Sequence record: PX393110.1 | Length of the DNA: 64,000 bases | Strand: one strand, 5' to 3' | Origin: a phage | Shown: positions 2,379-25,537 of the stretch, piece after piece | Layout of the letters: each line of letters begins with the position of its first letter | Numbering within the stretch: position 1 is the first letter of the stretch | Notes under the pieces: generated by a model | Seen by the model: only the letters and a program-made list of their open reading frames with translations | Databases searched by the model: none | What the model was told of the DNA's origin: nothing | Translations under genes and position numbers: made by a program

Positions 2379-2384
2379 ATCTAA

Positions 2385-6004: not shown

Positions 6005-6020
6005 AGTCTACCTAGAGCGT

Positions 6021-6047: not shown

Positions 6048-6060
6048 ATTAGTTAATTAA

Positions 6061-7095
6061 TTATTTACGGAATTTGGCGAAGCGAGAGGCAGCACCACCT
6101 TCTTCTTTGTCTTCGTCAGACTTATCGTCGCCGGCATCTTCAGTTTTATCTTCAGATTTGGCGTCAGATTTGTCGTCAGCAGCGTCTTCTTTAGACTCGC
6201 CTTTATCTTCAGACTTATCTTCGGCAGAGCTCGCGTCGGACTTAACATCAGACTTAGCGTCAGATTTGTCGTCGGCTTTCTGATCACCGGACTCTTCCTT
6301 AGATTCTTCGGCCTTAGCCTCTTCTTCAGCTTTAAGCTCTTCGAAGCCATCTTCGCCAACCAGCGGCAGACCTTTAGCCTTACGCTGGGAACGAATTTCG
6401 TCCAGATCTTTACGGACACGCTTGACCAGACCTACGTATTTGTCTTTGTCGAAGCCTTCACGGATGTACGCCTGAGCCAGCGGCTGGTAGGTCTGATCTG
6501 CAACTACCGGATCAGCTTTGCTGAACAGCGGAGTGAAGGTTACAGAACCCTGATTACCACGTACTACGGTAATCTTAACCGGAGAGCCTTTGATGTCTTT
6601 ATCCAGCATACCTTCCAGAACTTCCGGAGAGTCTTCCGCCAGCGCCGTAATGAAGTCGGTCAGTGCGTTAGCCACCTTACCGTTACCGATCACCGCATAC
6701 AGAGTATTCGGCTTCCAGTTATCAGACGGAGTGTCGGTTTTCTGCAGGAAGAAGTAGAACAGGATGTTGTACTTCAGACCGTATTTCCAGTGATTGTATT
6801 CGTTCAGCTCGTCGAGCATGTCATCCAGCTCGGCATAGTTGAAGTTTTCCGGCAGATCTTCACAGTCGGACGGAGTCTGAATACCATAGCTGAAGTAACC
6901 GTGAGTACGGACTTCACGATACAGGTTACCGACGGGGTCAGTTATGATACGACCCTGATGGCTACCTTCCGGAAGGAAAGTCGCGTTAGGGAAGTTACCG
7001 GTACCACCGGATTTCTCTTTACGCTCTTTCATTTTACCTGCGAGGGCTTTGATACCAGCTACGTCTAACTTCTTAACTTGAACTTGTTCAGTCAT
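6061..7095 (-). CDS. Putative ssDNA-binding protein with a long acidic K/D/S/E low-complexity C-terminal tail
   Basis: 344 aa; position between nuclease and helicase genes; C-terminal 90 aa is a repetitive KSD/KSE acidic tract like SSB tails. No zinc-binding motif seen, so function is inferred. Confidence 0.35.
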   Translation of the reverse strand: MTEQVQVKKLDVAGIKALAGKMKERKEKSGGTGNFPNATFLPEGSHQGRIITDPVGNLYREVRTHGYFSYGIQTPSDCEDLPENFNYAELDDMLDELNEYNHWKYGLKYNILFYFFLQKTDTPSDNWKPNTLYAVIGNGKVANALTDFITALAEDSPEVLEGMLDKDIKGSPVKITVVRGNQGSVTFTPLFSKADPVVADQTYQPLAQAYIREGFDKDKYVGLVKRVRKDLDEIRSQRKAKGLPLVGEDGFEELKAEEEAKAEESKEESGDQKADDKSDAKSDVKSDASSAEDKSEDKGESKEDAADDKSDAKSEDKTEDAGDDKSDEDKEEGGAASRFAKFRK

Positions 7096-7154
7096 CTTTG
7101 TGATCTCTATTTAAACAATGTTTTAACAATCTTAATCAGAGTTGCCCTCTGACA

Positions 7155-7187
7155 CCTTAACAGCCTTTCGACCCTCCAAAAGAGCGG
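7155..7187 (-). promoter_or_regulatory. Conserved promoter-like motif, copy 2
   Basis: CCTTAACAGCCTTTCGA...AAAAGAGCGG; intergenic, about 60 nt upstream of the ATG at 7095. Confidence 0.5.
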
Positions 7188-7191
7188 CGGA

Positions 7192-8232
7192 CTACACCTT
7201 ACGCAGTCGGTCTATCATTTTAGCCCGATGCTGCTCTTCTGTATTGATGATCGAGTACATACGAACCAATACTGACGGATCATTATCTACTCGGTTGGCT
7301 AACTTATCCAGAGCACCTAAGTAGATACTGGTCTCTTCCTTGATTACCTTACGAACTGAGTCAGCAAAGGTAAATCCAATACTGTCTGGGTTGAACGTAA
7401 TACCGTCCAGCATCACAGCCAGCATCACATTGTCCTGGAAGATGTCCGATTTAATAGAATCCAGTACACTATTCTTGCGGACTGTTTCCAATATCGAGAC
7501 GACCTTAGACACCTTCGGGAACCCTTTCCGGCCATTCAGTAGTTCCAGGAAGGTAAAGAATTTGCCTATGTCTTTGATAGATGTAAGCAGCAGGAATAGT
7601 TCAGGATGGTGCTCTGCCAGAATCGACAGGAACATCATCTTCTCTGTATTCGTCTTAGGAATCAGATCCTGTATCGCTTTAATATCTACGTCGGTCACGA
7701 TTGCTCCCATATGTTCGAGTATACGAGTCACGATGATCCTGTCTGTCAGATCAAGATGCTCGACCATAACCACTCCCCAGTCTAAATATAGCTGGATGAT
7801 AGGTTTGAATCGGTTAGGGAGGAACTGATTCCAAAGATTAACATAGCGATGGACAGCCACTTCCTGTCTAACGCTGTAACTATTGCCTAACTCCAGAGCC
7901 TTGTAAAAATCTGAGTTCTCGGCTAATTCGGGTTCTAGCATGTCGATCGATACTTGCTTTACTTCTTTCTTAATTATCGACTCGAGATGATCCCGTGTAA
8001 CTTCTTCTGTGGTAGTGAGCAGCATGTAGGTTAAGCTGGTCACTGCAGAAGATAATGCCTCTTCGGTCTGTCCTCTGAATTTATAATAGGTACACACCCG
8101 TCGGACTATGGCTAGTGATAAGGTGAATAGGGTACGAGAATCCCTCTTCACAGAATTGATCTCCCTATTCACCAATTCAACTAGCTTTTCGACGGTAGCG
8201 TTCTCGAGGATCTCTACCATCTCTTTTATCAT
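7192..8232 (-). CDS. hypothetical protein (346 aa), replication-module context
   Basis: ORF track; RBS GGAAGA; no diagnostic motif recognised. Confidence 0.5.
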   Translation of the reverse strand: MIKEMVEILENATVEKLVELVNREINSVKRDSRTLFTLSLAIVRRVCTYYKFRGQTEEALSSAVTSLTYMLLTTTEEVTRDHLESIIKKEVKQVSIDMLEPELAENSDFYKALELGNSYSVRQEVAVHRYVNLWNQFLPNRFKPIIQLYLDWGVVMVEHLDLTDRIIVTRILEHMGAIVTDVDIKAIQDLIPKTNTEKMMFLSILAEHHPELFLLLTSIKDIGKFFTFLELLNGRKGFPKVSKVVSILETVRKNSVLDSIKSDIFQDNVMLAVMLDGITFNPDSIGFTFADSVRKVIKEETSIYLGALDKLANRVDNDPSVLVRMYSIINTEEQHRAKMIDRLRKV

Positions 8233-8456
8233 TTAAATATCTTCCTCAGACCAGCATCCGGATCACCCTCATCCACGAAATCCTGCTTAATGCTAACTGC
8301 ATCGTTGATAGATATTTTGAACTCCTCGTCGGAAACACGAGTAATAGTTCCGTATTTACTCTCTATGGAGTTGCCTGGACTTATGGAACTCAGCACCATA
8401 AATACCATGGCTTCGTTGGGTAGGGTACCTACGATATCGGACAGCTTTACACTCAT
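8229..8456 (-). CDS. hypothetical protein (75 aa)
   Basis: ORF track; overlaps downstream gene by 4 nt; N-terminus MSVKLSDIVG resembles the N-terminus of the helicase at 11818. Confidence 0.4.
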   Translation of the reverse strand: MSVKLSDIVGTLPNEAMVFMVLSSISPGNSIESKYGTITRVSDEEFKISINDAVSIKQDFVDEGDPDAGLRKIFK

Positions 8457-8459
8457 ACA

Positions 8460-8909
8460 TTACCCCATACTTGATAAAGAGATAGACTTTTCGTCTAGTT
8501 CGCATACCTCCGTGATTAAAATCAGGTATTCGTAATTATCTTTATCATTGATTAGTTTATCCATATTCAAGGTGATCGTGAATCGATCATCTATGCTAAT
8601 AGCTTCCTTGACCGCATCTTCCACTGCTTTAATCAGGTTAGATACATCGCGAGTCCAGAATGATTGGCTGAACGAGAATATCATGCGGATATTCAACATC
8701 ACGGACTTACCTTTATATGGCAGAAATGCTTCTCTAGCTCCCTGCATATCTAAGGAGGATTTCACCCACTCCTTAAAGTCCTTGATGCTAGGGTCGAGAT
8801 AGACCCACGATCTTCCTCCACGAGCCCTCCCGACTTTATACATTTCGTTCACGGAGGGGAAATTCCCTCCGTATTGCAGAATGTAGTTATGAGTTCCTAA
8901 TACTTCCAT
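8460..8909 (-). CDS. Possible RusA-like Holliday junction resolvase
   Basis: 149 aa; NEMYK and RDVSNLIKAVEDAVKEA...IDDRF segments resemble RusA catalytic-region motifs, but the D-x-D is D-x-S here. Strong RBS GGAGGAA. Confidence 0.4.
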   Translation of the reverse strand: MEVLGTHNYILQYGGNFPSVNEMYKVGRARGGRSWVYLDPSIKDFKEWVKSSLDMQGAREAFLPYKGKSVMLNIRMIFSFSQSFWTRDVSNLIKAVEDAVKEAISIDDRFTITLNMDKLINDKDNYEYLILITEVCELDEKSISLSSMG

Positions 8910-10168
8910 TAGTTCCTCCGACCACCTCTGCCACCATAAGTCTGTAGGCGAGAATACACATCACGAGTAATCTGTTCGATTTCACCATGAGCTCTCATGA
9001 TCCAAGGTGAGCTAATTCCGTCCTTACCACGACGGCACTTAGCCACTTTAAGAATACCGCAGTGCTTCTCACTACGAGGACTCAGACCGACCGTAACCAT
9101 CATATCTACGTTCTGCTGCTTACGAGCAGATTCACCAGCAGAATCGATATTCAGTTCTTCCTCTCCCCAGTATTGAATCTTAGGCTGAGAGGCAACGAAC
9201 ACCAGGCGAGCAGGTTCGTAGATAGGTTTAGCTATGGAAGTCAGGATGTCATAGATATGACCACCATCGTCATACATACTTCCTGTTTCCGGACGCTTAA
9301 GGTTGGAGTCATAGTCCACTACCAGACAGTCGTAGCGCTTCTTACCTCGACAACTATCCAGGTATTCTTCCAGATCTTCAGCACCGAGACTACGAGAAGG
9401 CACTGTAATCAGGTCGATATAGTTCAGGATCTCACGAACGTCGTCGGTAAGGTGTTTATTCAGTTCGGCGACAACCTTAGCATAAGGAGTACCGGTGATC
9501 ACCGCCGTAGCACGAGATAAGAAGTCGTAGCGAGTTAAGTCGCCAAGAGCTACCCATAAAGTGCGACGACCCTGTGTAGCGAATCCGAGGACTTCCTGTA
9601 GCATGATAGCAGATTTACCACCACCAGGACGACCTACGAACTGAATTACCTGACCAGGAATATAGCCATTAAATACCGAGGCTTCAGTAACCACATCCAG
9701 AGTAGACTGGAATACGCCATCTAAGCCACCGATGTCATGTTCCATTACAGTATCTACATCCAGACCACCCAGAGTATGTACCGGAATAGTCGAAGTCAGA
9801 CTACGTGGAATATCACGAATCAGATCAATCAACATACCGGTATCTTCGGAGTTAGCTTTCATGATCTCTGTCAGTTTACGCTCCTGATAGAATCGGAAGA
9901 AGTTATTCACAATCTTCTCAATTTCTTTAGGATCGTTAACCAGACGGAAATTCTCGGCCAACTCAACAAAGTTAGATATGTCCTCTGCAGGACATACCTC
10001 ACCAAGTATCGAGTGAATTACAGCTGGGGTGGCATCCTGTAACTTAATACCGGACTCCACGAGGGTTCTTGCAATCTCAGTAGACCAGGGAAGATCATTA
10101 ATCGTGAGTCCCATAGACTCTTTGATCTTAGGGTTAAACAAACTTGCTACGTGTGTGATCTCTGACAT
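8909..10168 (-). CDS. DnaB-like replicative DNA helicase
   Basis: Walker A GRPGGGKSAIML, Walker B-like CLVVDYDSNL, RecA-fold C-terminal domain. Confidence 0.7.
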   Translation of the reverse strand: MSEITHVASLFNPKIKESMGLTINDLPWSTEIARTLVESGIKLQDATPAVIHSILGEVCPAEDISNFVELAENFRLVNDPKEIEKIVNNFFRFYQERKLTEIMKANSEDTGMLIDLIRDIPRSLTSTIPVHTLGGLDVDTVMEHDIGGLDGVFQSTLDVVTEASVFNGYIPGQVIQFVGRPGGGKSAIMLQEVLGFATQGRRTLWVALGDLTRYDFLSRATAVITGTPYAKVVAELNKHLTDDVREILNYIDLITVPSRSLGAEDLEEYLDSCRGKKRYDCLVVDYDSNLKRPETGSMYDDGGHIYDILTSIAKPIYEPARLVFVASQPKIQYWGEEELNIDSAGESARKQQNVDMMVTVGLSPRSEKHCGILKVAKCRRGKDGISSPWIMRAHGEIEQITRDVYSRLQTYGGRGGRRN

Positions 10169-10177
10169 TTCTATGTC

Positions 10178-11818
10178 CTATTTGCGAAATGATACCTTAG
10201 TGTGACTGATTACTTTCAGTCTACTTTTAATAGTTTCCATCTTGGACTTCATCTGCTTATTCAGCATATAATTATGCTTATCGAAGAAGAGTCCTACCTT
10301 AACCGCATCACCACGAGCCGAACGACCGATAGTCTGGATTACGCTCTTGTATGACTTGCCAGTTAAGGGTATAATAGAATCTAAGTTAGGGATGTCGATC
10401 CCTTCGGTACCAACGGAAGTAGTGATCAGCACTTTGAATGCTAAATCCTCAGCCAGTTCCTTGAGCTCGTCAAGTCCTAACCCTTCCGCTTCGCCTACAG
10501 GTGTCCAAACTACCGAACTCGAGAAGAATACAGTATCGATACCGATAGCATTCAGATTTCTAGCCATCTGAACACCATCTTCGACCTGAACCATCGGGAT
10601 ATAGGTTATACCTTTACCACCGAATACTTCATTATAAGTTCGTTTAATAGCCTCAGCAGTCATCATGCTACCCATATGCAGGTACAAACTACCTAACATA
10701 TACTCGGGTCGCTCTTTCTGATACTTGGCAATAACAGATCTGTCTTCTGACATCTCAACTAATATTTCGGTTAACTCTACCGGAACAGGTAGGTCATGCT
10801 CGATAATAGATGGTCCACAGTATGCTAATACCGCCATCCCCTTACTCGAAGCACCAAACTTAAATCCCTCGACGAGTAAACTGACGCCCTCCAGAGAATC
10901 CCCAGTGGCCGTAGTTCCCCAGATATACTCGGGATCGATAAGTTCTGTAAGTCTCTGCCAACCAGATGCAGAGAAGTGGTGAGCCTCGTCGGCTATAATA
11001 CAGTTAACCTGATTAAAGAACTCGGAGTACTCACCTTTCTTGTACTTATTGGTTCTCTGGAGTCCCGCCGGATTAATAACGTTAATCGGACTATTTACAT
11101 CCAGATCCCACGGAATAGTTACCCCGTACTTAGCAGCACGTAGAATAATCTCTTCCTTAACTCGGTTAGCGAAAGTATAGATCAACACTTTCTCTGTCAG
11201 ACCCGCTTCCAGTACAGACTCAGCAGTACCGATCAGCAGTTCTGTTTTACCAGCACCCGTATATAACCCGATGATCCCGAACTTAGAGTGACAGATAGCA
11301 TCTGCCGCACTCATCTGAATCTTACCCTTTTCAGGCTTAGGGTGATTTTCGAATACATCCAGCCATTTACGACTGAACTCGAATGCTGGCTCTTCCAGAC
11401 TATTATCGAACTGGGTAGGATCATCAGACGTAGCTATCGCAGTAGCACCAGGAATTACCTGAGCTCCTGAGTTGATCAGCTGATATAACATCTGACCTAC
11501 ACCGAGCTGGCAATTAACTTCACCAGCAAATAGACTCGTATATTTAATCTCTTTACGAGTCGGGAACATCCGTTTCATTCTCCAGTTATATTCCATCACA
11601 TCTTCGATGGCTGTGGAGAACATATGAATCTGTTTCAGTGCTTCCTGATCGTCAGCTGTGATCTTGCACAACATCCGAGACTCACGAGTAAAGTGTATAG
11701 TATACTCTTTACCAGCCGACTCGTTCTGAATCTTGGCTAATTCCATACGAATGGCTTTAGACACATCCGGATTTACCTTAGCCTTCTTCCCTACAAGATC
11801 CTCTAGCTTTACAGACAT
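10178..11818 (-). CDS. SF2 DEAH-box helicase (UvsW-like)
   Basis: Motif I GAGKTE, motif II IIADEAHH, motif III TTATG, motif V TTSVGTEGIDIP, motif VI QTIGRSARG; RBS AAGAGGAG. Confidence 0.75.
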   Translation of the reverse strand: MSVKLEDLVGKKAKVNPDVSKAIRMELAKIQNESAGKEYTIHFTRESRMLCKITADDQEALKQIHMFSTAIEDVMEYNWRMKRMFPTRKEIKYTSLFAGEVNCQLGVGQMLYQLINSGAQVIPGATAIATSDDPTQFDNSLEEPAFEFSRKWLDVFENHPKPEKGKIQMSAADAICHSKFGIIGLYTGAGKTELLIGTAESVLEAGLTEKVLIYTFANRVKEEIILRAAKYGVTIPWDLDVNSPINVINPAGLQRTNKYKKGEYSEFFNQVNCIIADEAHHFSASGWQRLTELIDPEYIWGTTATGDSLEGVSLLVEGFKFGASSKGMAVLAYCGPSIIEHDLPVPVELTEILVEMSEDRSVIAKYQKERPEYMLGSLYLHMGSMMTAEAIKRTYNEVFGGKGITYIPMVQVEDGVQMARNLNAIGIDTVFFSSSVVWTPVGEAEGLGLDELKELAEDLAFKVLITTSVGTEGIDIPNLDSIIPLTGKSYKSVIQTIGRSARGDAVKVGLFFDKHNYMLNKQMKSKMETIKSRLKVISHTKVSFRK

Positions 11819-11820
11819 AA

Positions 11821-12339
11821 TTACTCCTCTTTACTCTGGTAAAGTAACTGGACATCTGCCGCATTCTCGACATATTCCTGAGCTATACGAATAGCCCTAA
11901 CGACCATAGCCTTCTCTCCCCAGCTTAAGAACTCAGGAGTAGCGGCCATCTTAACGATCAACTCACGAGACAGATCTTCGATACACTTAATCTTGTTCGA
12001 GACCTTAGGAAACGCGAGTCTGTTATTGATGGTGATACGATCAGCAGGAATCTGGGTGAAGGTCTCGCCGAACAGTCTATCGAAATCTCCGATGTCGAGT
12101 TCAGTGAAGTAACCCTTACCTTCTTCCGTATCAAATATCCCATGAACTACTACGTTCTGTCGGATAGACACATTTAGTAAGTACTTAGAGTTCAGTAAGA
12201 TAACGTAGATACTCGAATAGCTTCGGAGATCACGTTTCCATGCTGATAACGACTCAGTAGGTGAGCCTTTGTATTCTACTCCCGAATTAAGAAGCATCTT
12301 AGCAAATGGGTCTAGGCTGTTAATTACTACAGTACTCAT
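11821..12339 (-). CDS. hypothetical protein (start refined to the ATG at 12339)
   Basis: Track ORF begins at a GTG at 12360, which would abut the promoter-like motif; the in-frame ATG at 12339 has an AAGGAG RBS 7 nt upstream. Confidence 0.45.
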   Translation of the reverse strand: MSTVVINSLDPFAKMLLNSGVEYKGSPTESLSAWKRDLRSYSSIYVILLNSKYLLNVSIRQNVVVHGIFDTEEGKGYFTELDIGDFDRLFGETFTQIPADRITINNRLAFPKVSNKIKCIEDLSRELIVKMAATPEFLSWGEKAMVVRAIRIAQEYVENAADVQLLYQSKEE

Positions 12340-12362
12340 TGTATTCTCCTTGGGTGCCACAG

Positions 12363-12395
12363 TTTAACAGCCTTTCGACGCTAATTAAAGGTGGT
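12363..12395 (-). promoter_or_regulatory. Conserved promoter-like motif, copy 3 (upstream half degenerate)
   Basis: TTTAACAGCCTTTCGA conserved; the AAAAGAGCGG half is replaced by AAAGGTGG. Confidence 0.4.
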
Positions 12396-12696
12396 CTTTA
12401 ACAGTTCCCAGAATATTATCTCTGGTATGGATTACGCCACTACGATTGGCTTCAATACGTGTGGTAGCTACTATTTCAAATACTTCTAATTGGATAGTAG
12501 GATGAATCATGCAAGTACGGATCAACATAGACAGAGCATCTTCGTAGCTCTGATAACCAGTCGCGTTCTTGTGATTATCCTGCCAAAGTCTATCTGTCGC
12601 CTGAGCTCGCTCCGAGATGTAAGAGATCTTACCATCTTTCATCTGACCAACACAATACTTAGCTTCAGAACTATCTGAAATATGTAACGTTTCCAT
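12385..12696 (-). CDS. hypothetical protein (103 aa)
   Basis: ORF track; co-oriented. Confidence 0.4.
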   Translation of the reverse strand: METLHISDSSEAKYCVGQMKDGKISYISERAQATDRLWQDNHKNATGYQSYEDALSMLIRTCMIHPTIQLEVFEIVATTRIEANRSGVIHTRDNILGTVKDHL

Positions 12697-12739
12697 AATT
12701 TCTCCTAATGGGGAGTTTTACCTCCCCTGAGTAAACATA

Positions 12740-12988
12740 TTAGAATGGGCGGTGACGAGATTCCGTTACCTGAAGACCTTCGAAGATCTTACCAACGAAG
12801 TCAAAGCTTACACCATCTTCTACCGATGTAATCTTGACACTATTGGTATCATCGATCTTCTGACCAGTCGCCAGGAGGCCGTTGGGGAGGACTACGCCTA
12901 CGAATTCACGAGTATCAGGTGGTCTACGGAAGTGTTTCTTCCCAGCAGGTTTCTTGTGTCTCGAGAACGGATTATTATTATAAGGCAT
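12740..12988 (-). CDS. hypothetical protein (82 aa, basic N-terminus)
   Basis: ORF track; co-oriented. Confidence 0.35.
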   Translation of the reverse strand: MPYNNNPFSRHKKPAGKKHFRRPPDTREFVGVVLPNGLLATGQKIDDTNSVKITSVEDGVSFDFVGKIFEGLQVTESRHRPF

Positions 12989-13349
12989 TGTCTAGCTCCT
13001 CTTTTATAGTATGATCTTTGTACATTCTTAAACTATACGGGTTCTCTATCTCTTCGAATTGAAGACCATCGAATCCATGTATCATGTTAGCGAATCGCAT
13101 ATTATACATGGTAATCCTGATCTGCCAAATCATAGAATTAGAGGCTTTACGGAATACTTTACACGGCTCACTAACTACAGCACCCTGGATCTTCTTTAGC
13201 TCGTTAACGATGTTCGACACATCTTCAAGTTCGCAATATGACTGAAAGATCCGTGATGGACATCGTCTTATTTGACTAACGTCTGAACCATACATAATTT
13301 TTACACAACGAGTAGATTGAACACAGAAGGACGTTGGATACGCCTCCAC
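12978..13349 (-). CDS. hypothetical protein (start uncertain)
   Basis: ORF track; the GTG start abuts the promoter-like motif, and an internal ATG at 13295 lacks a clear RBS. Confidence 0.3.
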   Translation of the reverse strand: MEAYPTSFCVQSTRCVKIMYGSDVSQIRRCPSRIFQSYCELEDVSNIVNELKKIQGAVVSEPCKVFRKASNSMIWQIRITMYNMRFANMIHGFDGLQFEEIENPYSLRMYKDHTIKEELDNAL

Positions 13350-13352
13350 CGC

Positions 13353-13383
13353 TTTAACAGCCTTTTAGGTCATTAAAACGGCG
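13353..13383 (-). promoter_or_regulatory. Conserved promoter-like motif, copy 4
   Basis: TTTAACAGCCTTTTAGG...AAAACGGCGG. Confidence 0.45.
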
Positions 13384-13392
13384 GAGTTCAGA

Positions 13393-14184
13393 TCAATACC
13401 GTGGGTCGGTATCCTGATAATCGCGAATCAAGTCATAGACGAGCACATCCAGACGAGTAGCATCTTCACGCTTCATGCGGGTAGGTCTGTACATATGAAT
13501 ACATACACAGTGCTTAGACCATACCTTAGCAGTCTGACGTTCCGTAAGTTCTTTACGGTCGACGATGTACTTCTCGAATGCGTGATAAGAGATAGGCTTT
13601 GATACTTCGATATATTGGCACATATCGAGGAATTGCGGGTAGTCGTCAGTCAGGTAACGACTGAATACATCCTGGTAATAGGAGTAGTTAGGGAACTTAC
13701 CACCATTTTCCAGAGATAAAGCATGAGTCTCTATCTCCTTCAGCATCAGAGACATGAATGCCTGATTATTGCTGGGGGAGGTCCACATGTTGATTTCGCA
13801 GTAGTCTAACCGAGGGGAATAAACGCGTACCTGAGTCTCGTGAGGAGTGTAGGTTTCGTGAGGGCTTCGGATAAAGAGTGTATCAGCATCAACATAGGAG
13901 TAACCACGAAGATCCATCATTACCTGAATCTTGAGTCGCAGGTAATCACATACAGAGGCCATCTTAGCCTTAGTCTTCAGGATATTATACGCTTTCTCCA
14001 TGATAGGATCTCTGGCGAATAAATCCTGGATCATAATGCATCGGCACCCTTCGATAATGTTTTCAGTATTATCGATCACCAGCACATGGTCCTTAGGTCC
14101 ATATTTCTGTAAGGATTTAATGCATTCCCGAACATGGATAGGCATCTTTGGTCCTACCCAAAGCTGGAAATAATTCTGACTCAT
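13393..14184 (-). CDS. Putative glycosyltransferase (GT32 / Gly_transf_sug-like)
   Basis: SVCDYLRLKIQVMMDLRGYSYVDADTLF matches the D-x-x-R-x-x-x-L...G-x-Y-x-D-x-D signature of GT32-type sugar transferases; RBS AGAGGTAA. Confidence 0.5.
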   Translation of the reverse strand: MSQNYFQLWVGPKMPIHVRECIKSLQKYGPKDHVLVIDNTENIIEGCRCIMIQDLFARDPIMEKAYNILKTKAKMASVCDYLRLKIQVMMDLRGYSYVDADTLFIRSPHETYTPHETQVRVYSPRLDYCEINMWTSPSNNQAFMSLMLKEIETHALSLENGGKFPNYSYYQDVFSRYLTDDYPQFLDMCQYIEVSKPISYHAFEKYIVDRKELTERQTAKVWSKHCVCIHMYRPTRMKREDATRLDVLVYDLIRDYQDTDPRY

Positions 14185-14817
14185 AGTTACCTCTATGTTA
14201 TTTATTTTAAACTGGATAGGGACCTAATAGAGTAAATTAGTAAATAAATACTTATTAGTTACCTCTTACCTATGCTAAGGGAAGCGTACTCGAGGAGTAC
14301 AGAGGCTTAGCGAAAGAGCGGAGTAACACCTTTATCCCAATTAGTCAAAGTAGAGAGCGAAGGAGTCGCGCCCGCTTGAGGCGGCGCGACCTCCGCTTCA
14401 CCAATCCTACCGGATGAGCGCCTGCGACCACCCGAGCCTACCCCTGCATCACTCTCTAAAGCCACTTCGGGCTTTACCTCGTTCTGCTACGCGATACGCA
14501 GGCGATAGCTACACTAAGTCCCCTGGAGATGGCTAGTAAGCATCCGCTACCAGTCATATCCAACCTAACATTGGCGAAGCCAGGGACTAGGCACTCCGCG
14601 CCAATAAGCTACATTAGGATTTATGTCCGTATTCGAAGATAGGCCGATCGGTGAGACTATGCATTCATCTCTGCTCAACCAGGAAGCGCCGATTAGGGTA
14701 AATACCCAAACTACCTTCTTAATGTCACTCCTCCCAGACCGCTTCGGGACTTAGCTTAAGTCATATCCGAATAATCTGGCATCTACGACGGACCGTAGTG
14801 TATGGAGCGTACTGCAA

Positions 14818-14849
14818 TTTAACAGCCTTTCGATTCATCAAAAGAGCGT
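14818..14849 (-). promoter_or_regulatory. Conserved promoter-like motif, copy 5
   Basis: TTTAACAGCCTTTCGATTCATCAAAAGAGCG; faces about 600 nt of ORF-free sequence before the glycosyltransferase gene. Confidence 0.5.
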
Positions 14850-14978
14850 AATTAGGGACCCGATTATTCCACTTAGCTGCCATCCGTTCGGGTCAACACA
14901 GATCGTTCCAGGTCTTAGGCATCATACCAGACCGTTTCAGTACACTCGGATTATTAGTTCCCGGTGACCATTTAAAGA

Positions 14979-15054
14979 TGGTGGCCCATACTGGTTTCGA
15001 ACCAGTGACCAATCGATTATGAGTCGACTGCTCTCACCACTGAGCTAATGGGCC
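14979..15054 (-). tRNA. tRNA-Met (anticodon CAT; elongator-type, or Ile2 if lysidinylated), CCA encoded
   Basis: Hand-folded cloverleaf: acceptor GGCCCAT/ATGGGCC, D-stem GCTC/GAGC, anticodon stem GTCGA/TCGAT, loop CTCATAA, T-stem ACTGG/CCAGT, T-loop TTCGAAA, 3' ACCA; 76 nt. Confidence 0.85.
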
Positions 15055-15199
15055 GAACTGGTCGGGACCGTGGCCCACACTAGAGGATTTGCCAAACTCC
15101 CCATTATCATGGCCTAAGCCATCCAGACAGCCGTGACTACCCTGCTCCGGTACATGTGATAATGGGGACGTATCCAAAAATGTGGAGATCCCGTTAAGG

Positions 15200-15276
15200 T
15201 GGTACTCCCTACAGGATTCGAACCTGTGACCAATAGCTTAGAAGGCTACTGCTCTATCCAGCTGAGCTAAGGGAGC
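15200..15276 (-). tRNA. tRNA-Arg (anticodon TCT), CCA encoded
   Basis: Hand-folded cloverleaf: acceptor GCTCCCT/AGGGAGT (G1-U72), D-stem GCTC/GAGC, anticodon stem GTAGC/GCTAT, loop CTTCTAA, T-stem ACAGG/CCTGT, T-loop TTCGAAT; 77 nt. Confidence 0.85.
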
Positions 15277-15457
15277 TTATTAATTCTTCTACCTGCTTAA
15301 CAGATTTATTCATGCCTGTTCCGTGACACTCCCCGCAGACCCAAGTCCGACAGAAGATATCACCAGGCTCAGCATCGTCACACTCTCCTAAACCTCCACA
15401 TTCTGGACATTTAGCTTCATTAACAATACTTCTTAGCTTATGAAAAGTAGTTTCCAT
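15254..15457 (-). CDS. Small zinc-ribbon protein (CPEC...CGEC)
   Basis: 67 aa with two CxxC pairs; RBS GGAGGA before the ATG at 15457; the 3' end overlaps the tRNA-Arg 5' end by 23 nt. Confidence 0.45.
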   Translation of the reverse strand: METTFHKLRSIVNEAKCPECGGLGECDDAEPGDIFCRTWVCGECHGTGMNKSVKQVEELISSLSSAG

Positions 15458-15473
15458 AAATCCTCCATTTTAG

Positions 15474-15541
15474 GATGACCTCTTAGCTTACCATCGCGAA
15501 AAGCTACATGGAGTGTAGTTAACGTGAACTAAGAGGTCATC
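15474..15541 (-). promoter_or_regulatory. Structured element closed by a 13-bp perfect inverted repeat
   Basis: GATGACCTCTTAG (15474-15486) pairs with CTAAGAGGTCATC (15529-15541); the enclosed 42 nt hold two further hairpins (TAGCTT/AAGCTA and CTACA/TGTAG). Lies directly 5' of the RBS of the zinc-ribbon gene. Confidence 0.4.
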
Positions 15542-15547
15542 ATAAAA

Positions 15548-15649
15548 TCAGCTATTGAAAGCTAATATAATACTGTCCCAACCATCTACATAAATTGCGT
15601 TGGCTACATATAATACGAAGAATATAGCAACGACTATTGGATTAATCAT
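15548..15649 (-). CDS. Possible small hydrophobic membrane peptide (33 aa)
   Basis: Track ORF 15548-15757 has an Arg-rich N-terminus with no RBS; the internal ATG at 15649 has AGGAGAG 7 nt upstream and encodes MINPIVVAIFFVLYVANAIYV..., a single predicted TM helix. Confidence 0.3.
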   Translation of the reverse strand: MINPIVVAIFFVLYVANAIYVDGWDSIILAFNS

Positions 15650-15989
15650 CGTACTCTCCTGAGAAATATTATCCTGCTTACTGTTACAGGGACGCCGTTC
15701 GTCGCGCCAGATTACCAATCGGCGATTAAGCCGATCTCGCCAACCGCGTAACGCCATTGGCTGGTATCACATAGGCTTGTAGCCCTCAGTCAACCTGTCC
15801 TGAGGAGGTAGGAAGAGCCATACGCCAAATCCGGGATTGATAGTCCCATATAGCTTCCTACTTTGCCATTCTCGTATGGCCTCGGATACGACTGTCTCTG
15901 GGTAAGGAGTCCCGACAGCTGATACGGTTTAGTTTATTTTTAATTTGAGTCCCACTCATACCTTACAGACTCAAGCACTGCAGACCACC

Positions 15990-16019
15990 GAAAAACCGAC
16001 TGGTACGCTAGCAGTCGGT
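15990..16019 (-). terminator. Rho-independent terminator about 30 nt downstream of promoter-like motif copy 6
   Basis: Stem ACCGACTG/CAGTCGGT (8 bp) with a 9-nt loop, followed on the minus strand by TTTTT. Confidence 0.5.
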
Positions 16020-16049
16020 CCCACGGATCCCATGAACAACTTATGACAA

Positions 16050-16080
16050 TTTAACAGCCTTTCGAGTCATCAAAAGAGTG
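16050..16080 (-). promoter_or_regulatory. Conserved promoter-like motif, copy 6
   Basis: TTTAACAGCCTTTCGAGTCATCAAAAGAGTG; no ORF of 60 aa or more within about 290 nt downstream. Confidence 0.5.
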
Positions 16081-16231
16081 TTAAGTTGCCCGCTCCCTAT
16101 CACCGAGCACTGTGATGATGGGAAATAGGGAGCGAAACGATTCCTAAGTTTTATCTTCTTCTCTAAGTGATTAACCGTTACATACGATATACCTTCTTAG
16201 TTAGATAAGCCGGAATTGGCACTTCGAACAC

Positions 16232-16263
16232 TTTAACAGCCTTTCGACCGTACAAAAGAGCGG
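16232..16263 (-). promoter_or_regulatory. Conserved promoter-like motif, copy 7
   Basis: TTTAACAGCCTTTCGACCGTACAAAAGAGCGG; tandem with copy 8, 58 bp apart. Confidence 0.5.
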
Positions 16264-16268
16264 CGTAA

Positions 16269-16811
16269 TTAGACGCTCGCCTCAGACACTTTAACAGCCT
16301 TTGGAACTGTAAAAAGAGCGGGTTTATACCATTCGGGAGTGCGGTAGAAAGTAATGGTACGACCCTCTTTCTCCCAGATATAGTATTTATCGTTCAGGTA
16401 GTTACGATACTTCTCGTAAACTGTTTCGCCAGGAGCACCTGCCACACACGCATAAGGTGTCATGTCAGTCTCCGGACCGACCTTCAAGTTCTTAGGCAGT
16501 TTGCTGAGTCGCGACAGAATAATATCTGTGGCATGCATACGACCGGTACGTTCATAGAACAGGATACACAGATAGTTAGCCAGCTCTTTAACGAAGTTGT
16601 AGTTACCGGAAGATTCACGGACCCAGCGTGCTGATGGGTGATTTACGTGAGTCTGTTTGTAAATACCCTCGATAGCTTGATCGCCATCCAGAACATGATG
16701 AGCTGTGGACAACAGCTGAGCACATTCGATAATCATTTTATTCTGGTGCATTGGCATACAATGGTCCATAGCACATTCTAACGCATCTTCGTGAGTACGG
16801 AAAATATTCAC
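16269..16811 (-). CDS. hypothetical protein (180 aa; GTG start)
   Basis: ORF track; AGGAG 8 nt upstream of the GTG at 16811. Confidence 0.5.
   Translation of the reverse strand: MNIFRTHEDALECAMDHCMPMHQNKMIIECAQLLSTAHHVLDGDQAIEGIYKQTHVNHPSARWVRESSGNYNFVKELANYLCILFYERTGRMHATDIILSRLSKLPKNLKVGPETDMTPYACVAGAPGETVYEKYRNYLNDKYYIWEKEGRTITFYRTPEWYKPALFTVPKAVKVSEASV
16290..16321 (-). promoter_or_regulatory. Conserved promoter-like motif, copy 8 (overlaps the 3' end of the upstream CDS)
   Basis: TTTAACAGCCTTTGGAACTGTAAAAAGAGCGG; the last codons of the 16269-16811 ORF read through it. Confidence 0.45.
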
Positions 16812-16896
16812 TATAATTACTCCTAACGTGGTTTGCTTACTTTAAGTCTCTCGTAAAAGATTTAGAGTAAGCATCGGAGGTAACCACCTCCGACAC

Positions 16897-16928
16897 TTTA
16901 ACAGCCTTTCGACGGTACAAAAGAGCGG
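16897..16928 (-). promoter_or_regulatory. Conserved promoter-like motif, copy 9, followed by a 5' hairpin GGAGGTGGTTACCTCC
   Basis: TTTAACAGCCTTTCGACGGTACAAAAGAGCGG; the hairpin at 16876-16891 would sit at the predicted 5' end of the transcript. Confidence 0.5.
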
Positions 16929-16930
16929 TT

Positions 16931-17086
16931 TTAAATCTTACATGCGTCCCCGCAGTCGTCGTCACCAGGCTGGCTGATAACTTCGTCTACGTTAACCATG
17001 CGATCTTCGACACGCTTAGATGCTTCGTCGAGTTCTTCCTGAGAAGGAATATTATTGAAGTCCAACTCTTCAGCAGATTTGCTCAT
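16931..17086 (-). CDS. Small acidic protein (51 aa; start refined)
   Basis: The track ORF 16931-17299 overlaps the neighbouring gene in another frame; the ATG at 17086 has GAGGAA upstream; product MSKSAEELDFNN...DDDCGDACKI. Confidence 0.4.
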   Translation of the reverse strand: MSKSAEELDFNNIPSQEELDEASKRVEDRMVNVDEVISQPGDDDCGDACKI

Positions 17087-17093
17087 AGTTTCC

Positions 17094-17429
17094 TCATAAG
17101 AACATTTTGACAAGATGTTTAGTACCGTTGATAGCAGCTTTCTTAGCAGCCGACTTAACATGAGCTTTAACTTTCTTATGTAAAGTCTTGGACTTAGCCT
17201 TATTTTTAAGGAGTCGTCCGGCAGCTTTAGCCCTACGCTTGATTCTGTTAGCTGATTCGGAAATAGCAATACCTTCCTCATCAGTAACATCATCAACATT
17301 AGACGAAGCTATCATCAGTAACTGATCATCGGTTAAACCAGCTGCTATGGTTTTGACGAATATTCCTTCATCGACATCACCAACAGCATTAAGGAGATCC
17401 TGTGATTTTGACATAATCTTCCCATACAT
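17094..17429 (-). CDS. hypothetical protein (111 aa, lysine-rich C-terminus)
   Basis: ORF track; AAGGAAG 7 nt upstream of the ATG at 17429. Confidence 0.45.
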   Translation of the reverse strand: MYGKIMSKSQDLLNAVGDVDEGIFVKTIAAGLTDDQLLMIASSNVDDVTDEEGIAISESANRIKRRAKAAGRLLKNKAKSKTLHKKVKAHVKSAAKKAAINGTKHLVKMFL

Positions 17430-17883
17430 TAATTACTTCCTTACCCAGAGATTTAGCATGGGTTACACAGTTACCTGTACCACCCTTGCTGCCATCCCAT
17501 AAGGCTAATCCCTTCTGACTACGGTTAACCATGTAACGGTTACGCACCATCATCTTGAAAGAATCATACCCAGGCTCGGAAACTATAATTGTGCGACGAC
17601 TTCTCCTGCAGAGCTCAGTCCATTTTTCTACATCTGCAGATCGCCACATCTTGGGCTGGTCAATCATAGGGACTGCTGCGAAATATGGTATTCCGAGGTT
17701 AGCACATGCTTGAGCACATGCCATGTCCCATCCTAAAGCCATACCCACGAACCAGCAGTCGACCTTATTTTCTTCGGTCAACCTCTGGATATGATGTTCG
17801 GCAAACTGGGTAAGCTGATCATGGCTAAAGATATCCCAGCCACCCAGTTTATCTGGCCTATGACCAGTGACGAACATAAACAT
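17389..17883 (-). CDS. Possible SLOG/YpsA-like Rossmann-fold protein
   Basis: 164 aa; TGHRP near the N-terminus and WDGSKGGTGN near the C-terminus, recalled as typical of YpsA/DUF1273-type SLOG domains; assignment from memory only. Confidence 0.3.
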   Translation of the reverse strand: MFMFVTGHRPDKLGGWDIFSHDQLTQFAEHHIQRLTEENKVDCWFVGMALGWDMACAQACANLGIPYFAAVPMIDQPKMWRSADVEKWTELCRRSRRTIIVSEPGYDSFKMMVRNRYMVNRSQKGLALWDGSKGGTGNCVTHAKSLGKEVINVWEDYVKITGSP

Positions 17884-18224
17884 TACTTCTTCTCTATCTT
17901 GGCCTGCTTAGCCTTAACTAAAGCCAATGCGTTAGCCAGTTTAGCAGAAGTATCCTGCGGACCATCTTCTTCGAGCTGTTTCTTCAGGGACTCCATACGA
18001 TCGGTAGTCCCTTTAGTATCCATCTCGATTAATTCGTTGATGGTCGACCCGCCGACGTTAGGTAACTTGCCGAGTTGCGACAAATCCTTAACTTCGGGGA
18101 TCTTAACGTGAAGTTGAATAGACTGGGATGCTCTCGCGAATGACCCAGCACGACGATTGTCTCCTACCTTATTATATAGGGAAGATAGGTTACCCAGGAA
18201 CGTAATGATATCAGCAGTTTTCAT
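17883..18224 (-). CDS. hypothetical protein with a helix-hairpin-helix-like motif (start refined)
   Basis: Track start at 18239 is a TTG; the ATG at 18224 has GGAGGA 6 nt upstream; LGKLPNVGGSTINELIE is HhH-like. Confidence 0.45.
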   Translation of the reverse strand: MKTADIITFLGNLSSLYNKVGDNRRAGSFARASQSIQLHVKIPEVKDLSQLGKLPNVGGSTINELIEMDTKGTTDRMESLKKQLEEDGPQDTSAKLANALALVKAKQAKIEKK

Positions 18225-18242
18225 ATTTGATTCCTCCAACGG

Positions 18243-18274
18243 TTTAACAGCCTTTGGACCTTACAAAAGAGCGG
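18243..18274 (-). promoter_or_regulatory. Conserved promoter-like motif, copy 10 (at the strand-switch region)
   Basis: TTTAACAGCCTTTGGACCTTACAAAAGAGCGG, about 20 nt upstream of the ATG at 18224. Confidence 0.5.
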
Positions 18275-18420
18275 TTTTTATTCAAAAAGAGTGTTAAAAT
18301 TAGGTTTTTGAGCTTTACAGGACGCCCCTGCGCTCTAAAGATAGGCCTCAAAAGGGTGTTTTTGTGAAGGTTGTCCGAGCCCCGTCCGGGACGTCTTCAA
18401 CTATAAACAGGAGAAATACA

Positions 18421-18894
18421 ATGGGCGAGTTAGCTAAGCAAAACTTAAGTACTATTCAAAAGGGTCTTTCCTTAGTTAATTCGGAGGGTTCTGAATCCGT
18501 TAACGTCAAAGCCCTACAAGGTAAAGAGATAGGCTTACAGATTCTCCAGCTAGGTCTGGCTGAGTCTGAGGCTAACCGAGTAGCCAAGCTTAACGGGATT
18601 ATCGAGATCCTCGAAAAGAAAATCTTTGATCCTGAGCGTCTGGACAGACTCACCGAGAAGGAGCAGATCGAGAGATATCAACTGGCATTAGCTAGTGCAT
18701 CTCAGTCGGCAGCATTCGTTAAATCGACCATTGGTTCGATTAACTGGACAGCTATCGAAGTATCTCTGCTGAGTCTGGCTTCCGCCATAGAGACTGCCAA
18801 TGAAGGTCAGTCTCCTAAGGATCGTAAAGATATGTCTACTATCGCCAATAACTTGATTAAGCAATTGGCGGAAGGCATTGGTCCTAAGGGGTAA
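18421..18894 (+). CDS. Putative terminase small subunit (by position)
   Basis: First gene of the plus-strand block, immediately upstream of the large terminase; ATG at 18421 with AGGAGA RBS (the track start at 18364 lacks an RBS). Confidence 0.35.
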   Translation: MGELAKQNLSTIQKGLSLVNSEGSESVNVKALQGKEIGLQILQLGLAESEANRVAKLNGIIEILEKKIFDPERLDRLTEKEQIERYQLALASASQSAAFVKSTIGSINWTAIEVSLLSLASAIETANEGQSPKDRKDMSTIANNLIKQLAEGIGPKG

Positions 18895-18897
18895 ACC

Positions 18898-20724
18898 ATG
18901 ACTGATGCATTAGATGAGTTTATTGAAGCATGTGGCTCTAGACTCGAAGCTATGCATCAGTTAGCGTTGATGAGTGGCTACGAGGAGCGGGTTCCGACGA
19001 TCCAGGATTTCATAATGGATCCGTACTACCTGGGTAAGTCTCTGGTAGATGCTGACGGTGTCTGCTCGGTCTATCCTATATGGATGGATGCTCTAGCTAA
19101 GATTTACCCTACTCCTTACACTTCACCAGCTGTAGAGATTTATCTAACTGGTGGTATCGGTCTGGGTAAGTCAACTGCTGCTAAGATTATCACTCTCTAC
19201 GACCTGTGCAAATTGCTATGTCTTAGAGATCCTCGCGCTCATTTTAAACTTCTGCCATCCACAGTAATTCGTTGGATGTTGATGAACGCCACTAAAGGTC
19301 TATCCTACGATGTACTCTACGCAGAGATCATCGAGTGGATAGAGAACAGTCCATTCTTCAAAGGTAAGATGACTGGTGGTAAGAATCCTCGTACTTTGTT
19401 CATTAAGAATGTGGACTTAGGATTCGGTTCTCGTGGTCAGGATGCTCTGGGGCAGGCTACCGTAGGTGCTATCTTCTCAGAGATAAACGACATGACCGTA
19501 GTTCATGGTCAGGCAGAAGATAACTTCGACACCATCTATACTCGTATGAACTCTCGTTTCGGGGGTAAAGGGGTAGAGATGATTGGCCACTTGATTCTAG
19601 ACTCTTCGAATAAGGGAAACCGTTCCTTTATCGATGTTCGTCTAGAGGATAAAGCCAAGAAAGGAATTAACGACTATCTGTTATTCAGATATGCCCACTG
19701 GGAAGCTAAATGGCACCTCGGAGGGTATTCTGGGGAAATGTTCTACGTCTATGCTGGTGACCAGTATCGAGATCCGTTTATCTTTGATGAGAATACTCTC
19801 AAGATTAAAGACGGTCTGGAGCCATCTCGTATTATCTCTGTACCTGTTGAACATAGACAGGAATTCGAGACTAACATTGTTAAGTCTCTCAGGGATCTTG
19901 CTGGTGTGTCTACATTCGGTACATGGTCGTTCATCTCGTCCTACGAGGTGCTTAACCGAGCAGCTGACCACATTAACCCTACTGAATCTAACGTGGTAGT
20001 TCTGGACTTCTTCGATAAGGAGCAGACTCTTCACCAGACTATAGATGTCCCCAGACTTGCCTTCCTTAATAAGAAGGATCGGTTCATCCATATTGACTTG
20101 GGTCTTAAGAACGACTCAACTGGTATAGCCTGTTCTTATCTCGATGGTTATGTAGACCAAGAGACCTATGATCCTCTGACCAGTACTCGCATGGTTACTC
20201 GTGAACCTAAGATTGTTACTGAGTGGGCATTAGAAATTACCTGCCAGCCTGGTCAGGAAGTCCCTATCTACAAGATTAAGAACTTCTTAATAGAAGCATC
20301 TCAGCAAGGTTACCCAATTAAAATGGTAACCACAGATGGATACCAATCCACGAACTTACGTCAGGATTTAACTCTGGCTGGGTTCGAGACTGCTCTGCTA
20401 TCTGTAGACCGGACTAAAGACCCGTATAACTACTTAAGAAACTCGATTCTCGAAGGTCGCAGCACTATTCCTGCTGTACCTAAACTGATCAAGGAGCTTA
20501 AAGAGTTGGAGGAAGGAGAAGGTAAGTTCGACCACCCTCCGTCGGGGAGTAAAGATATCGCGGATGCTGTCTGCGGATCTCAGTGGTCAGTTAAAGAGAA
20601 TATCCATAAGATAGGGTCTACTGCCACGGTTGAAGATCTTCAAGTTGCACTCCACGAACTTAATAAGTCTAGGGATGCGAAGGAGATGTTTCGGAACATT
20701 ATTAAGCAACGAGTGGGTGGCTAA
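18898..20724 (+). CDS. terL: Terminase large subunit
   Basis: 608 aa; Walker A GGIGLGKST in the N-terminal ATPase domain; C-terminal nuclease-like domain with conserved acidic residues (HIDLGLKNDSTG, VTTDGYQS). Confidence 0.8.
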   Translation: MTDALDEFIEACGSRLEAMHQLALMSGYEERVPTIQDFIMDPYYLGKSLVDADGVCSVYPIWMDALAKIYPTPYTSPAVEIYLTGGIGLGKSTAAKIITLYDLCKLLCLRDPRAHFKLLPSTVIRWMLMNATKGLSYDVLYAEIIEWIENSPFFKGKMTGGKNPRTLFIKNVDLGFGSRGQDALGQATVGAIFSEINDMTVVHGQAEDNFDTIYTRMNSRFGGKGVEMIGHLILDSSNKGNRSFIDVRLEDKAKKGINDYLLFRYAHWEAKWHLGGYSGEMFYVYAGDQYRDPFIFDENTLKIKDGLEPSRIISVPVEHRQEFETNIVKSLRDLAGVSTFGTWSFISSYEVLNRAADHINPTESNVVVLDFFDKEQTLHQTIDVPRLAFLNKKDRFIHIDLGLKNDSTGIACSYLDGYVDQETYDPLTSTRMVTREPKIVTEWALEITCQPGQEVPIYKIKNFLIEASQQGYPIKMVTTDGYQSTNLRQDLTLAGFETALLSVDRTKDPYNYLRNSILEGRSTIPAVPKLIKELKELEEGEGKFDHPPSGSKDIADAVCGSQWSVKENIHKIGSTATVEDLQVALHELNKSRDAKEMFRNIIKQRVGG

Positions 20725-25481: not shown

Positions 25482-25507
25482 GATTTGATGCGTTAAGTTG
25501 GCATTAG

Positions 25508-25537
25508 CTACGGCCTCTTATTGAGGCCGTAGTTTTT
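25508..25537 (+). terminator. Rho-independent terminator after the capsid gene
   Basis: Stem CTACGGCCTC / GAGGCCGTAG (10 bp), loop TTATT, followed by TTTTT. Confidence 0.75.

Follow-up and report, generated by a model that had tools for sequence, protein, structure and literature searches.

What is the role of a hairpin with a U-run that lies a few tens of nucleotides behind a promoter-like motif in a phage genome? The question is raised by the minus strand of a 64-kb stretch of tailed-phage DNA (sequence record PX393110.1; the whole stretch is referred to below as the window), where a 36-nt promoter-like element, motif copy 6 (P6, 16081-16046), is followed by a terminator-like hairpin (16019-15995) and a run of five T residues (U5 in the transcript). 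The initial annotation took this pair for a promoter with a canonical terminator and predicted either a small RNA of about 50 nt or an attenuator. What it missed is that a structured RNA of high conservation occupies the apparent spacer downstream, with two tRNA genes behind it. The data described below suggest that P6 drives a stable-RNA/tRNA operon and that the hairpin is a leader stem-loop terminating transcription at most partially, a reading to which we give about an even chance of being correct.

The window shares ~86% DNA identity with the E. coli myoviruses vB_EcoM_IME392 (hereafter IME392; 116 kb) and EP_H11 (111 kb), which were also the only matches of the region of interest in the phage collection and which have been placed among phages thought to bear hypermodified thymidine (PMC12686479). 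Its replication, recombination and nucleotide-metabolism genes lie on the minus strand (positions 1-18300 and 59000-64000), and packaging and structural genes lie on the plus strand (18364-58884). The RNA region was compared across five sequences that fall into three lineages: the window together with L005, a phage 99% identical to it; EP_H11; and IME392 together with L004. With five sequences in three lineages, the covariation statistics given below are thin. Two further relatives, L026 and L038, have large terminases 88% and 72% identical to that of the window, respectively.

A repeated promoter-like motif upstream of the leader

P6 (ACACTCTTTTGATGACTCGAAAGGCTGTTAAATTGT) belongs to a motif family with the consensus CCGCTCTTTTG-N8-AAAGGCTGTTAAAnTGT. 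When the 17-nt core of the motif (AAAGGCTGTTAAAKTGT) was searched for with up to three mismatches, 12 copies were found in the window, all of them on the minus strand, against a mean of 0.21 and a maximum of 2 in shuffled sequences; the motif copy first reported at 16050-16080 is real. The 40-kb plus-strand structural block contains none. Start codons are found 14-56 nt downstream of the ends of motif copies, and the copy at 18239-18274 precedes the first minus-strand gene of a divergent junction, where no transcription can come from upstream. In IME392, 15 further copies are co-oriented with the genes for DNA polymerase, helicase, topoisomerase, thymidylate synthase and similar replication and nucleotide-metabolism functions. 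P6 itself is 95-97% identical in EP_H11, IME392 and L004; the motif persists as the variant CGCTTCTTTGATACnCTAAAAGGCTGTTAA in L026 and as another variant in L038, and the invariant parts of the motif are CTCTTT and AAAGGCTGT. The motif is repeated, strand-specific, placed upstream of co-oriented genes and conserved in relatives, as is expected of a phage-specific promoter family, and judging by its sequence and arrangement it behaves like a phage-specific promoter. Transcription from P6 would start at about 16046-16040.

Either the host or a phage RNA polymerase may read the motif. Its TGnTAAAnT stretch resembles an extended -10 element; on a sigma-70 reading of this stretch, the L038 variant TGTGAACTT and the EP_H11 variant TGTTGAATT alter the key -12/-11 positions. 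Split genes for the beta and beta' subunits of an RNA polymerase are annotated in IME392, in a part of the genome outside that covered by the window. In addition, the upstream half of the motif, CGCTCTTT(T), which is present in all copies (for example at 16071-16080 of the window), resembles boxA, to which NusB/NusE bind in the antitermination of rrn and lambda nut. The boxA-like half of the tandem copies described below would be transcribed into the leader of the stable-RNA operon. The resemblance may well be a coincidence.

Two other observations concern the motif family as a whole. In the IME392 record (L041, 14796-14735, minus strand), a motif core (AAGGCTGTTAAC) pairs with an inverted copy of itself in a 12-bp hairpin, of which it is the 5' arm, and AUUUUUAUUU comes next; the resulting terminator-like structure has a folding energy of -25.6 kcal/mol (z -4.7). 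We also asked whether a 5' stem-loop is a general feature of transcripts that would begin at the motif, and this could be ruled out: the 45 nt that follow the 12 copies fold with a mean of -7.3 kcal/mol, compared to a background of -7.2 kcal/mol (P = 0.46).

The leader hairpin is maintained as a helix

The core hairpin (ACCGACUG / CUAGCGUAC / CAGUCGGU, 16019-15995) begins 27 nt downstream of P6. It has 8 bp, a 9-nt loop and a folding energy of about -10.5 kcal/mol, and the first U of the U5 run (15995-15991) doubles as its last stem base. Around it an extended helix can be drawn (16026-15988), in which CCGUGGG pairs with UUUUUCGG to give 15 pairs in total, with 88% of alignment cells paired. 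Upstream, a small leader hairpin (16034-16022; CAUGG-GAU-CCGUG in the window and CAUG-GAUC-CGUG in the relatives), supported by alignments and by folding, is the sole conserved stretch of the leader.

The folding energy of the P6 hairpin is unexceptional. Its z-score is -1.4 to -1.7, with 11-20 of 200 shuffles folding equally well or better, and the corresponding values for EP_H11 and IME392 are -0.6 and -1.8. The reality of the hairpin follows not from energy but from compensatory substitutions in the relatives, where A-U pairs become G-C or G-U and C-G pairs become U-A or U-G; among the pairs that are still paired, two have changed on both sides and four on one side. At the same time, the leader together with the hairpin is the least conserved non-coding block of the region, with 65-67% identity and a 4-nt indel. 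The U5 run is kept in the window, L005 and EP_H11, and UUUUUC reads CUUCAU in IME392 and L004. These substitutions leave the extended helix at -18.4 kcal/mol, the same value as in the window, and selection therefore acts on the helix and not clearly on the U-tract.

Comparison with intrinsic terminators

A generic terminator scan missed the P6 hairpin because its 9-nt loop exceeds the 8-nt loop limit of the scan. When loops of up to 10 nt were allowed, the hairpin ranked third among five terminator-like sites on the minus strand, with about one such site seen in first-order Markov simulations. The phage has operon-end or gene-end terminators of its own, at 2380-2361 and 6049-6026 on the minus strand and at 25507-25533 and 58889-58920 on the plus strand, with stems of 8-12 bp, loops of 4-8 nt and energies of -13 to -24 kcal/mol. 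The two on the minus strand (z -4.1 and -4.6) have UUCG tetraloops, A-tracts upstream and T-tracts downstream; they were the two checked in IME392 and are 100% identical there, U-tracts included. These canonical terminators show that the polymerase or polymerases transcribing the phage meet standard hairpin/U-tract signals.

The P6 hairpin is like them in that its stem contains G+C and leads straight into a T-run on the transcribed strand, and its 8 bp with five G-C pairs agree with the G+C-rich stem of at least about 5-8 bp expected of an intrinsic terminator. It differs from them in its 9-nt loop (3-8 nt being typical of intrinsic terminators), its energy of -10.5 kcal/mol, its z-score of -1.7, its location 25 nt after the promoter and its poorly conserved sequence. 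The hairpin and U5 placed by the initial annotation at 15990-16019 are thus present, while 'canonical' was too strong a word for them, and membership of the P6 hairpin among intrinsic terminators is not established.

Could it nevertheless be a dedicated regulatory terminator? The hairpin with U5 would then either yield a functional trans-acting small RNA of ~50 nt or act as a switchable attenuator or antitermination gate that times the expression of the RNA/tRNA operon, much as PR'-tR' does with Q in phage lambda. There, a promoter-proximal terminator is subject to antitermination by Q and gives rise to the short 6S RNA. The location of the hairpin and U5 25-55 nt after a promoter-like motif, their rank in the relaxed scan and the retention of U5 in the window, L005 and EP_H11 all speak for such a role; partial termination or an RNA of ~50 nt is possible on these grounds, and a transcript from the inferred start to the U-run would measure about 50-55 nt, in line with the estimate of the initial annotation. 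So does L026, where at a non-homologous position another motif copy is followed by a hairpin and U5, but that hairpin starts 2-3 nt after the motif and cannot terminate transcripts from that copy. The one candidate antiterminator pairing found, AGUUG with CGACU, sequesters the 5' arm of the hairpin and is only partly conserved in relatives; together with the small leader hairpin it reaches -9.1 kcal/mol, about 9 kcal/mol weaker than the -18.4 kcal/mol of the terminator form. A classic attenuator is further disfavored by the lack of a leader peptide (the 25-nt leader contains no ORF) and of any match to an Rfam riboswitch or leader family at E <= 10.

A dedicated small RNA is not supported either. 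Trans-acting, Hfq-type small RNAs are characterised by a conserved single-stranded seed and a terminator hairpin with a U-tail; here the leader, in which any seed would lie, is poorly conserved, the U-tail is missing from one lineage, and no antisense match of the leader, and hence no complementary target, exists elsewhere in the window. As to termination, the U-run has been lost in IME392 and L004 though the helix there is equally stable, while the true terminators of the phage are far stronger than the P6 hairpin, and the two compared with IME392 are invariant. We therefore regard a dedicated terminator as unlikely.

Precedents for the arrangement exist. In the jumbo phage 201phi2-1, mapped by ONT-cappable-seq, 8 of 11 small RNAs arise from premature termination in 5' untranslated regions, and one of these lies right before a tRNA (PMC11512511). 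Here, too, a promoter-like phage element is followed by a terminator-like hairpin within tens of nucleotides, and 201phi2-1 has its own multisubunit RNA polymerase, as annotated in IME392. However, 5' and 3' ends were mapped in 201phi2-1, whereas the P6 unit is known from sequence alone, its U-tract is not conserved in close relatives, and a long conserved structured RNA separates the hairpin from the tRNAs. In Stx phage, the short StxS RNA arises from PR'-tR' (PMC7547250). The likeness to the lambda and Stx systems consists in a terminator-like hairpin close after the promoter, a putative short by-product RNA and the need for read-through to express what lies downstream; in contrast, the cargo in the present phage is a stable RNA and tRNAs rather than late genes, and the hairpin is a weak one that in one lineage does without its U-tract. 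Among the neighbouring genes screened against PHROGs no antiterminator match was found, no search aimed at Q homologues or a Q-binding element having been made.

A conserved structured RNA follows the U-run

Immediately after the U-run, at 15987, begins a non-coding RNA body of ~315 nt (15987-15673), delineated by conservation, pairing and covariation. The initial annotation correctly described this stretch as ORF-poor: no ORF of more than 33 aa lies in the RNA body. The gene start that it placed about 250 nt farther on (an ATG at 15757, opening a 69-aa ORF that ends at 15548) does not belong to a conserved gene, as its frame survives neither the one-base indels seen in IME392 and L004 nor the module swap of L005. 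A 33-aa ORF at 15959-15858 was rejected in the same way, its frame being broken by indels and module swaps in relatives, and a gene caller run on L005 called only another 33-aa ORF, at 15649-15548.

The conserved blocks of the RNA body are 92-100% identical to EP_H11, IME392 and L004, with flanking coding sequences at 81-89%. Its helices (15972-15947, 15918-15892, 15881-15865 and 15805-15784) are accompanied by an A-rich linker (15946-15926, AAATTAAAAATAAACTAAACC), two variable modules and twin 3' hairpins. The proposed local helices are paired in 94.8% of alignment cells, compared to 31-46% when the partners are slid against each other. Changes on both sides are seen in six pairs, where shuffles give 2.5 +/- 1.2 and 3 of 500 of them reach six, with the caveat that related sequences, here five in three lineages, can beat such a control without any structure. 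G-U occupies at least eight helix positions in most or all of the sequences, and because the helices hold many such pairs, the RNA is assigned to the minus strand.

Variation within the RNA is concentrated in particular modules. The variable stem at 15861-15808 has been replaced outright in sequence in EP_H11, IME392 and L004 with its pairing kept, and it carries an invariant apical hairpin, UGGGA-CUAUCAA-UCCCG (15848-15832), that is present in the more distant L026 as well. This single-copy hairpin has the look of an anticodon stem-loop, with a 5-bp stem, a fit to anticodon-loop rules (U33, A37) and an 'AUC' anticodon. Another invariant element is the 7-nt loop CUCCUUA (15909-15903), whose closing pair covaries between G-C and U-A and which matches 7 of the last 8 nt of 16S rRNA, in the anti-Shine-Dalgarno region. 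In the second variable module (15760-15715) the helix AUCGGC/GCCGAU covaries (C-G, U-A and U-G); in L005 the 46 nt of this module are replaced by ~110 unrelated nucleotides. That insert (about 1210-1320 of L005) has a fold of its own and includes an ORF of 35 codons that lacks a clear ribosome-binding site. The twin 3' hairpins, GGCGC-GACGAACG-GCGUC and CCUGU-AACAGUAAG-CAGG (15708-15673), are 100% identical in the five sequences. Overall, the pattern of conservation suggests a structured RNA whose core is conserved and whose peripheral arms vary.

The RNA does not resemble known families. A cmscan against Rfam 15 over 15600-16150 gave no hit at E <= 10, and over 12000-19000 it returned only the two tRNAs and two sub-threshold chance hits outside the region; ARAGORN and Rfam found no tRNA, tmRNA, group I intron or known ribozyme over 15660-16045. 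The same RNA was looked for and rejected in L026, which has in common with the close relatives only the motif family, the start-stop element described below, the CUAUCAA hairpin, the second structured element and the tRNAs. It is conceivable, if improbable, that 15987-15673 represents a new class of phage RNA, with anticodon-stem-loop-like and anti-Shine-Dalgarno-like loops and exchangeable modules, that acts in trans on the translation apparatus or decoys tRNA- or ribosome-targeting host defences, and that the promoter-proximal hairpin is a regulated gate, read through by the phage polymerase or a phage factor, that times the expression of the RNA and the tRNAs.

Another possibility is that the hairpin is itself an integral arm of the RNA, one branch of a multi-helix junction closed by pairing of 16031-16020 with 15773-15761, in which case it would have no role in termination and the U-run would be a junction linker. 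Indeed, RNAalifold places the hairpin inside this closing helix, in which it draws 12 invariant pairs, the L005 insertion begins exactly at the 3' edge of the long-range helix, and sequence variation is seen in other arms of the RNA too. The long-range helix, however, shows no positive covariation, two of its 12 pairs break in some sequences, and it competes with the extended local helix; moreover, the sharp conservation boundary at 15987 suggests that the hairpin is a separate module. We consider this arrangement very unlikely.

One could also suppose that the locus functions as DNA, for example by binding a protein or by serving as an origin of replication of the T7 or T4 kind, in which tandem promoters are combined with an A-rich unwinding element, the hairpin being incidental. 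Three motif copies within 280 nt are followed by the A-rich run at 15946-15926, and the region sits among replication genes. Yet many of the G-U pairs in the helices would be A-C mismatches on the other strand, and stems are kept by compensatory changes and whole-stem swaps, which points to RNA and not to recognition of duplex DNA. A function at the DNA level is thus highly improbable.

The putative tRNA operon and probable read-through of the hairpin

On the same strand, ~400-700 nt downstream of the structured RNA, ARAGORN and Rfam identify genes for tRNA-Arg (UCU; 15276-15200) and tRNA-Met (CAU; 15054-14979). In 5/5 genomes the order is P6, hairpin, RNA, two to three tRNAs and then the next motif, with no motif copy in between; in the window this next motif, found by the motif scan, is copy 5 (14849-14814, minus strand), where the next transcription unit would begin. 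From 16045 to 14979 the minus strand showed no sigma-70-like site either. Since the tRNAs have no other motif-type promoter in the five genomes, substantial read-through of the hairpin is required if they use promoters of this type.

On the reading that we favor, P6 would head a largely untranslated operon comprising the leader hairpin, the ~315-nt RNA, a small ORF, a second structured element, tRNA-Arg and tRNA-Met. The nascent leader would fold into the small hairpin (16034-16022) and the extended hairpin (16026-15988), the latter being a leader stem-loop module whose pairing, but probably not its sequence or U-tract, is under selection. In this phage some of the polymerases probably come off at the U5 tail, leaving a by-product of ~50 nt; alternatively or additionally, a processing (RNase cleavage) site in the U-rich linker may give rise to a fragment of that size. 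Most polymerases would read through to the structured RNA and the tRNAs, which may then be released from the precursor by host processing of the RNase P/E type.

Several points weigh against this reading. The promoter activity of P6, its start site and the polymerase that would use it are deduced from nucleotide patterns, and IME392 is annotated with split RNA polymerase genes. U5 is kept in two of the three lineages, which possibly reflects some selection for termination. Transcription of the tRNAs from a promoter of an unrecognised type could remove the argument for read-through. About 7-12 unpaired nucleotides would precede the first helix, too many for a classic 5'-end protective hairpin (RNase E entry). 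The caveat attached above to the shuffle control applies here as well.

The remaining elements of the putative operon differ in their conservation. The small ORF (15649-15548, minus strand) encodes a hydrophobic peptide of 33 aa behind a good ribosome-binding site and is present in 4/5 relatives, being absent from EP_H11. The second structured element (15548-15467, minus strand) has a stem of ~19 bp enclosing the conserved CUCCAUGUAGCUUUUCGCGAUGGUAAGC and folds at -32.7 kcal/mol (z -5.4). Its outer stem has another sequence in EP_H11 (L002) and in L026 (500-560), namely UGUGCACC/GGUGCACA, with the pairing kept, and in both of these genomes the element lies directly 5' of a tRNA-Gly gene. A 67-aa ORF located between the second structured element and tRNA-Arg is not found in the relatives.

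Two structures were noticed in the spacers between tRNA genes. The tRNA-Arg/tRNA-Met spacer of the window contains a long stem (15167-15099, minus strand; CCCCAUUAUCA...UGAUAAUGGGG; -29.5 kcal/mol, z -2.95) that may be a processing signal. In L026, a tRNA-like sequence between tRNA-Gly and tRNA-Met (316-402, minus strand) has acceptor, D and T arms and a CCA end, with ~20 extra nucleotides in the anticodon region; it is not called by ARAGORN.

The upstream non-coding unit

Upstream of P6, the motif scan and the alignment reveal another conserved non-coding unit, headed by two tandem motif copies on the minus strand (16321-16286 and 16263-16228). This unit is 87-94% conserved and is partly present even in L026. 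It contains a strong, nearly invariant hairpin (16134-16091, minus strand; -23.6 kcal/mol, z -4.2) that is not followed by a U-run; at one position of it L004 has G in place of A, making a U-G pair, as would be expected of minus-strand RNA. Between the tandem copies and this hairpin, a Shine-Dalgarno-like AAGAAGG is followed after an 8-nt spacer by ATG and then TAA (16198-16178, minus strand). This start-stop mini-ORF is conserved in all five close relatives and in L026 (1458-1480), where most other non-coding sequence has diverged.

The unit suggests another function for the P6 hairpin and U5, namely that they terminate transcripts coming from 16321-16228 (~230 nt, comprising the mini-ORF, the hairpin at 16134-16091 and P6 itself as RNA) and thereby insulate the operon, their position after P6 being incidental. 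The unit is conserved and has no other terminator. The hairpin with U5 that abuts a motif copy in L026 can act only on transcripts from upstream, and the IME392 hairpin at 14796-14735, strong and terminator-like with a motif core as one arm, indicates that motif sequences can be transcribed. But a terminator of this kind would leave the structured RNA and the tRNAs of this phage without an unobstructed promoter. The loss of the U-tract in IME392 and L004 argues against it as well, and P6 is as well conserved (95-97%) as other copies of the motif. We judge such an insulating role to be distinctly unlikely.

The gene immediately upstream of the RNA region (16811-16269, minus strand) encodes a DenV-like pyrimidine-dimer glycosylase, similar to T4 endonuclease V. 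Its homologues carry the PF03013 domain, and the syntenic position in L026 lacks a DenV-like gene.

Distribution of the phage group

Searches of protein, genome and metagenome collections found about nine genomes or contigs of this clade. By blastn, the region has no sequence similarity to phages outside the IME392 group, and no match to the RNA region was found in E. coli genomes. In IMG/VR there was no match for terminase peptides, the motif or a 20-mer of the RNA. Joint Genome Institute (JGI) metagenomes had no match for an invariant 22-mer of the RNA; searched with the motif, they returned one true but uninformative 1.2-kb contig and four chance matches. In Genome Taxonomy Database (GTDB) genomes, only chance matches in high-GC bacteria were obtained.

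Among relatives with terminase identities of 59-72%, synteny is lost or the sequence breaks off at the small terminase gene, and one sequence, L043, stops short of the RNA region. Six independent contigs (L027-L032, large terminase 60-62% identical) all stop where the small terminase gene starts, ~500 nt upstream of the large terminase gene. Such a shared end point may be a terminus of the genome or an assembly break induced by a repeat.

Relation to known systems

Large structured RNAs of phages and prophages, ROOL and GOLLD, are often found beside tRNA islands (PMC12286853). Similarly, the RNA at 15987-15673 is a phage-borne, conserved, multi-helix non-coding RNA directly upstream of tRNA genes and has conserved and variable regions. 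It matched neither the ROOL and GOLLD covariance models nor any other of 4227 Rfam families at E <= 10; in addition, it is ~315 nt long, compared to about 580-800 nt, and comes from about five genomes only. It is not a member of ROOL or GOLLD.

A different parallel is provided by the tRNA cluster of phage T4, in which tRNA genes share a precursor with the small stable RNAs species 1 and 2 and are released by host RNases. The phage studied here likewise has tRNA genes beside an additional, putatively stable RNA, and co-transcription and processing, if they occur, would be a further likeness.

By itself the hairpin is of modest interest, and more weight is carried by the unclassified structured RNA, by the family of promoter-like motifs and by the fact that the clade is rare. 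The analysis newly defines a 36-nt promoter-like motif family and the first candidate stable-RNA transcription unit of a rare clade of E. coli myoviruses, together with an unclassified RNA of ~315 nt that lies beside tRNAs. If the hairpin is a leaky or regulated terminator, it would offer a simple handle on how phages of this kind dose their tRNAs and non-coding RNAs; otherwise, it would be an ordinary leader stem-loop.

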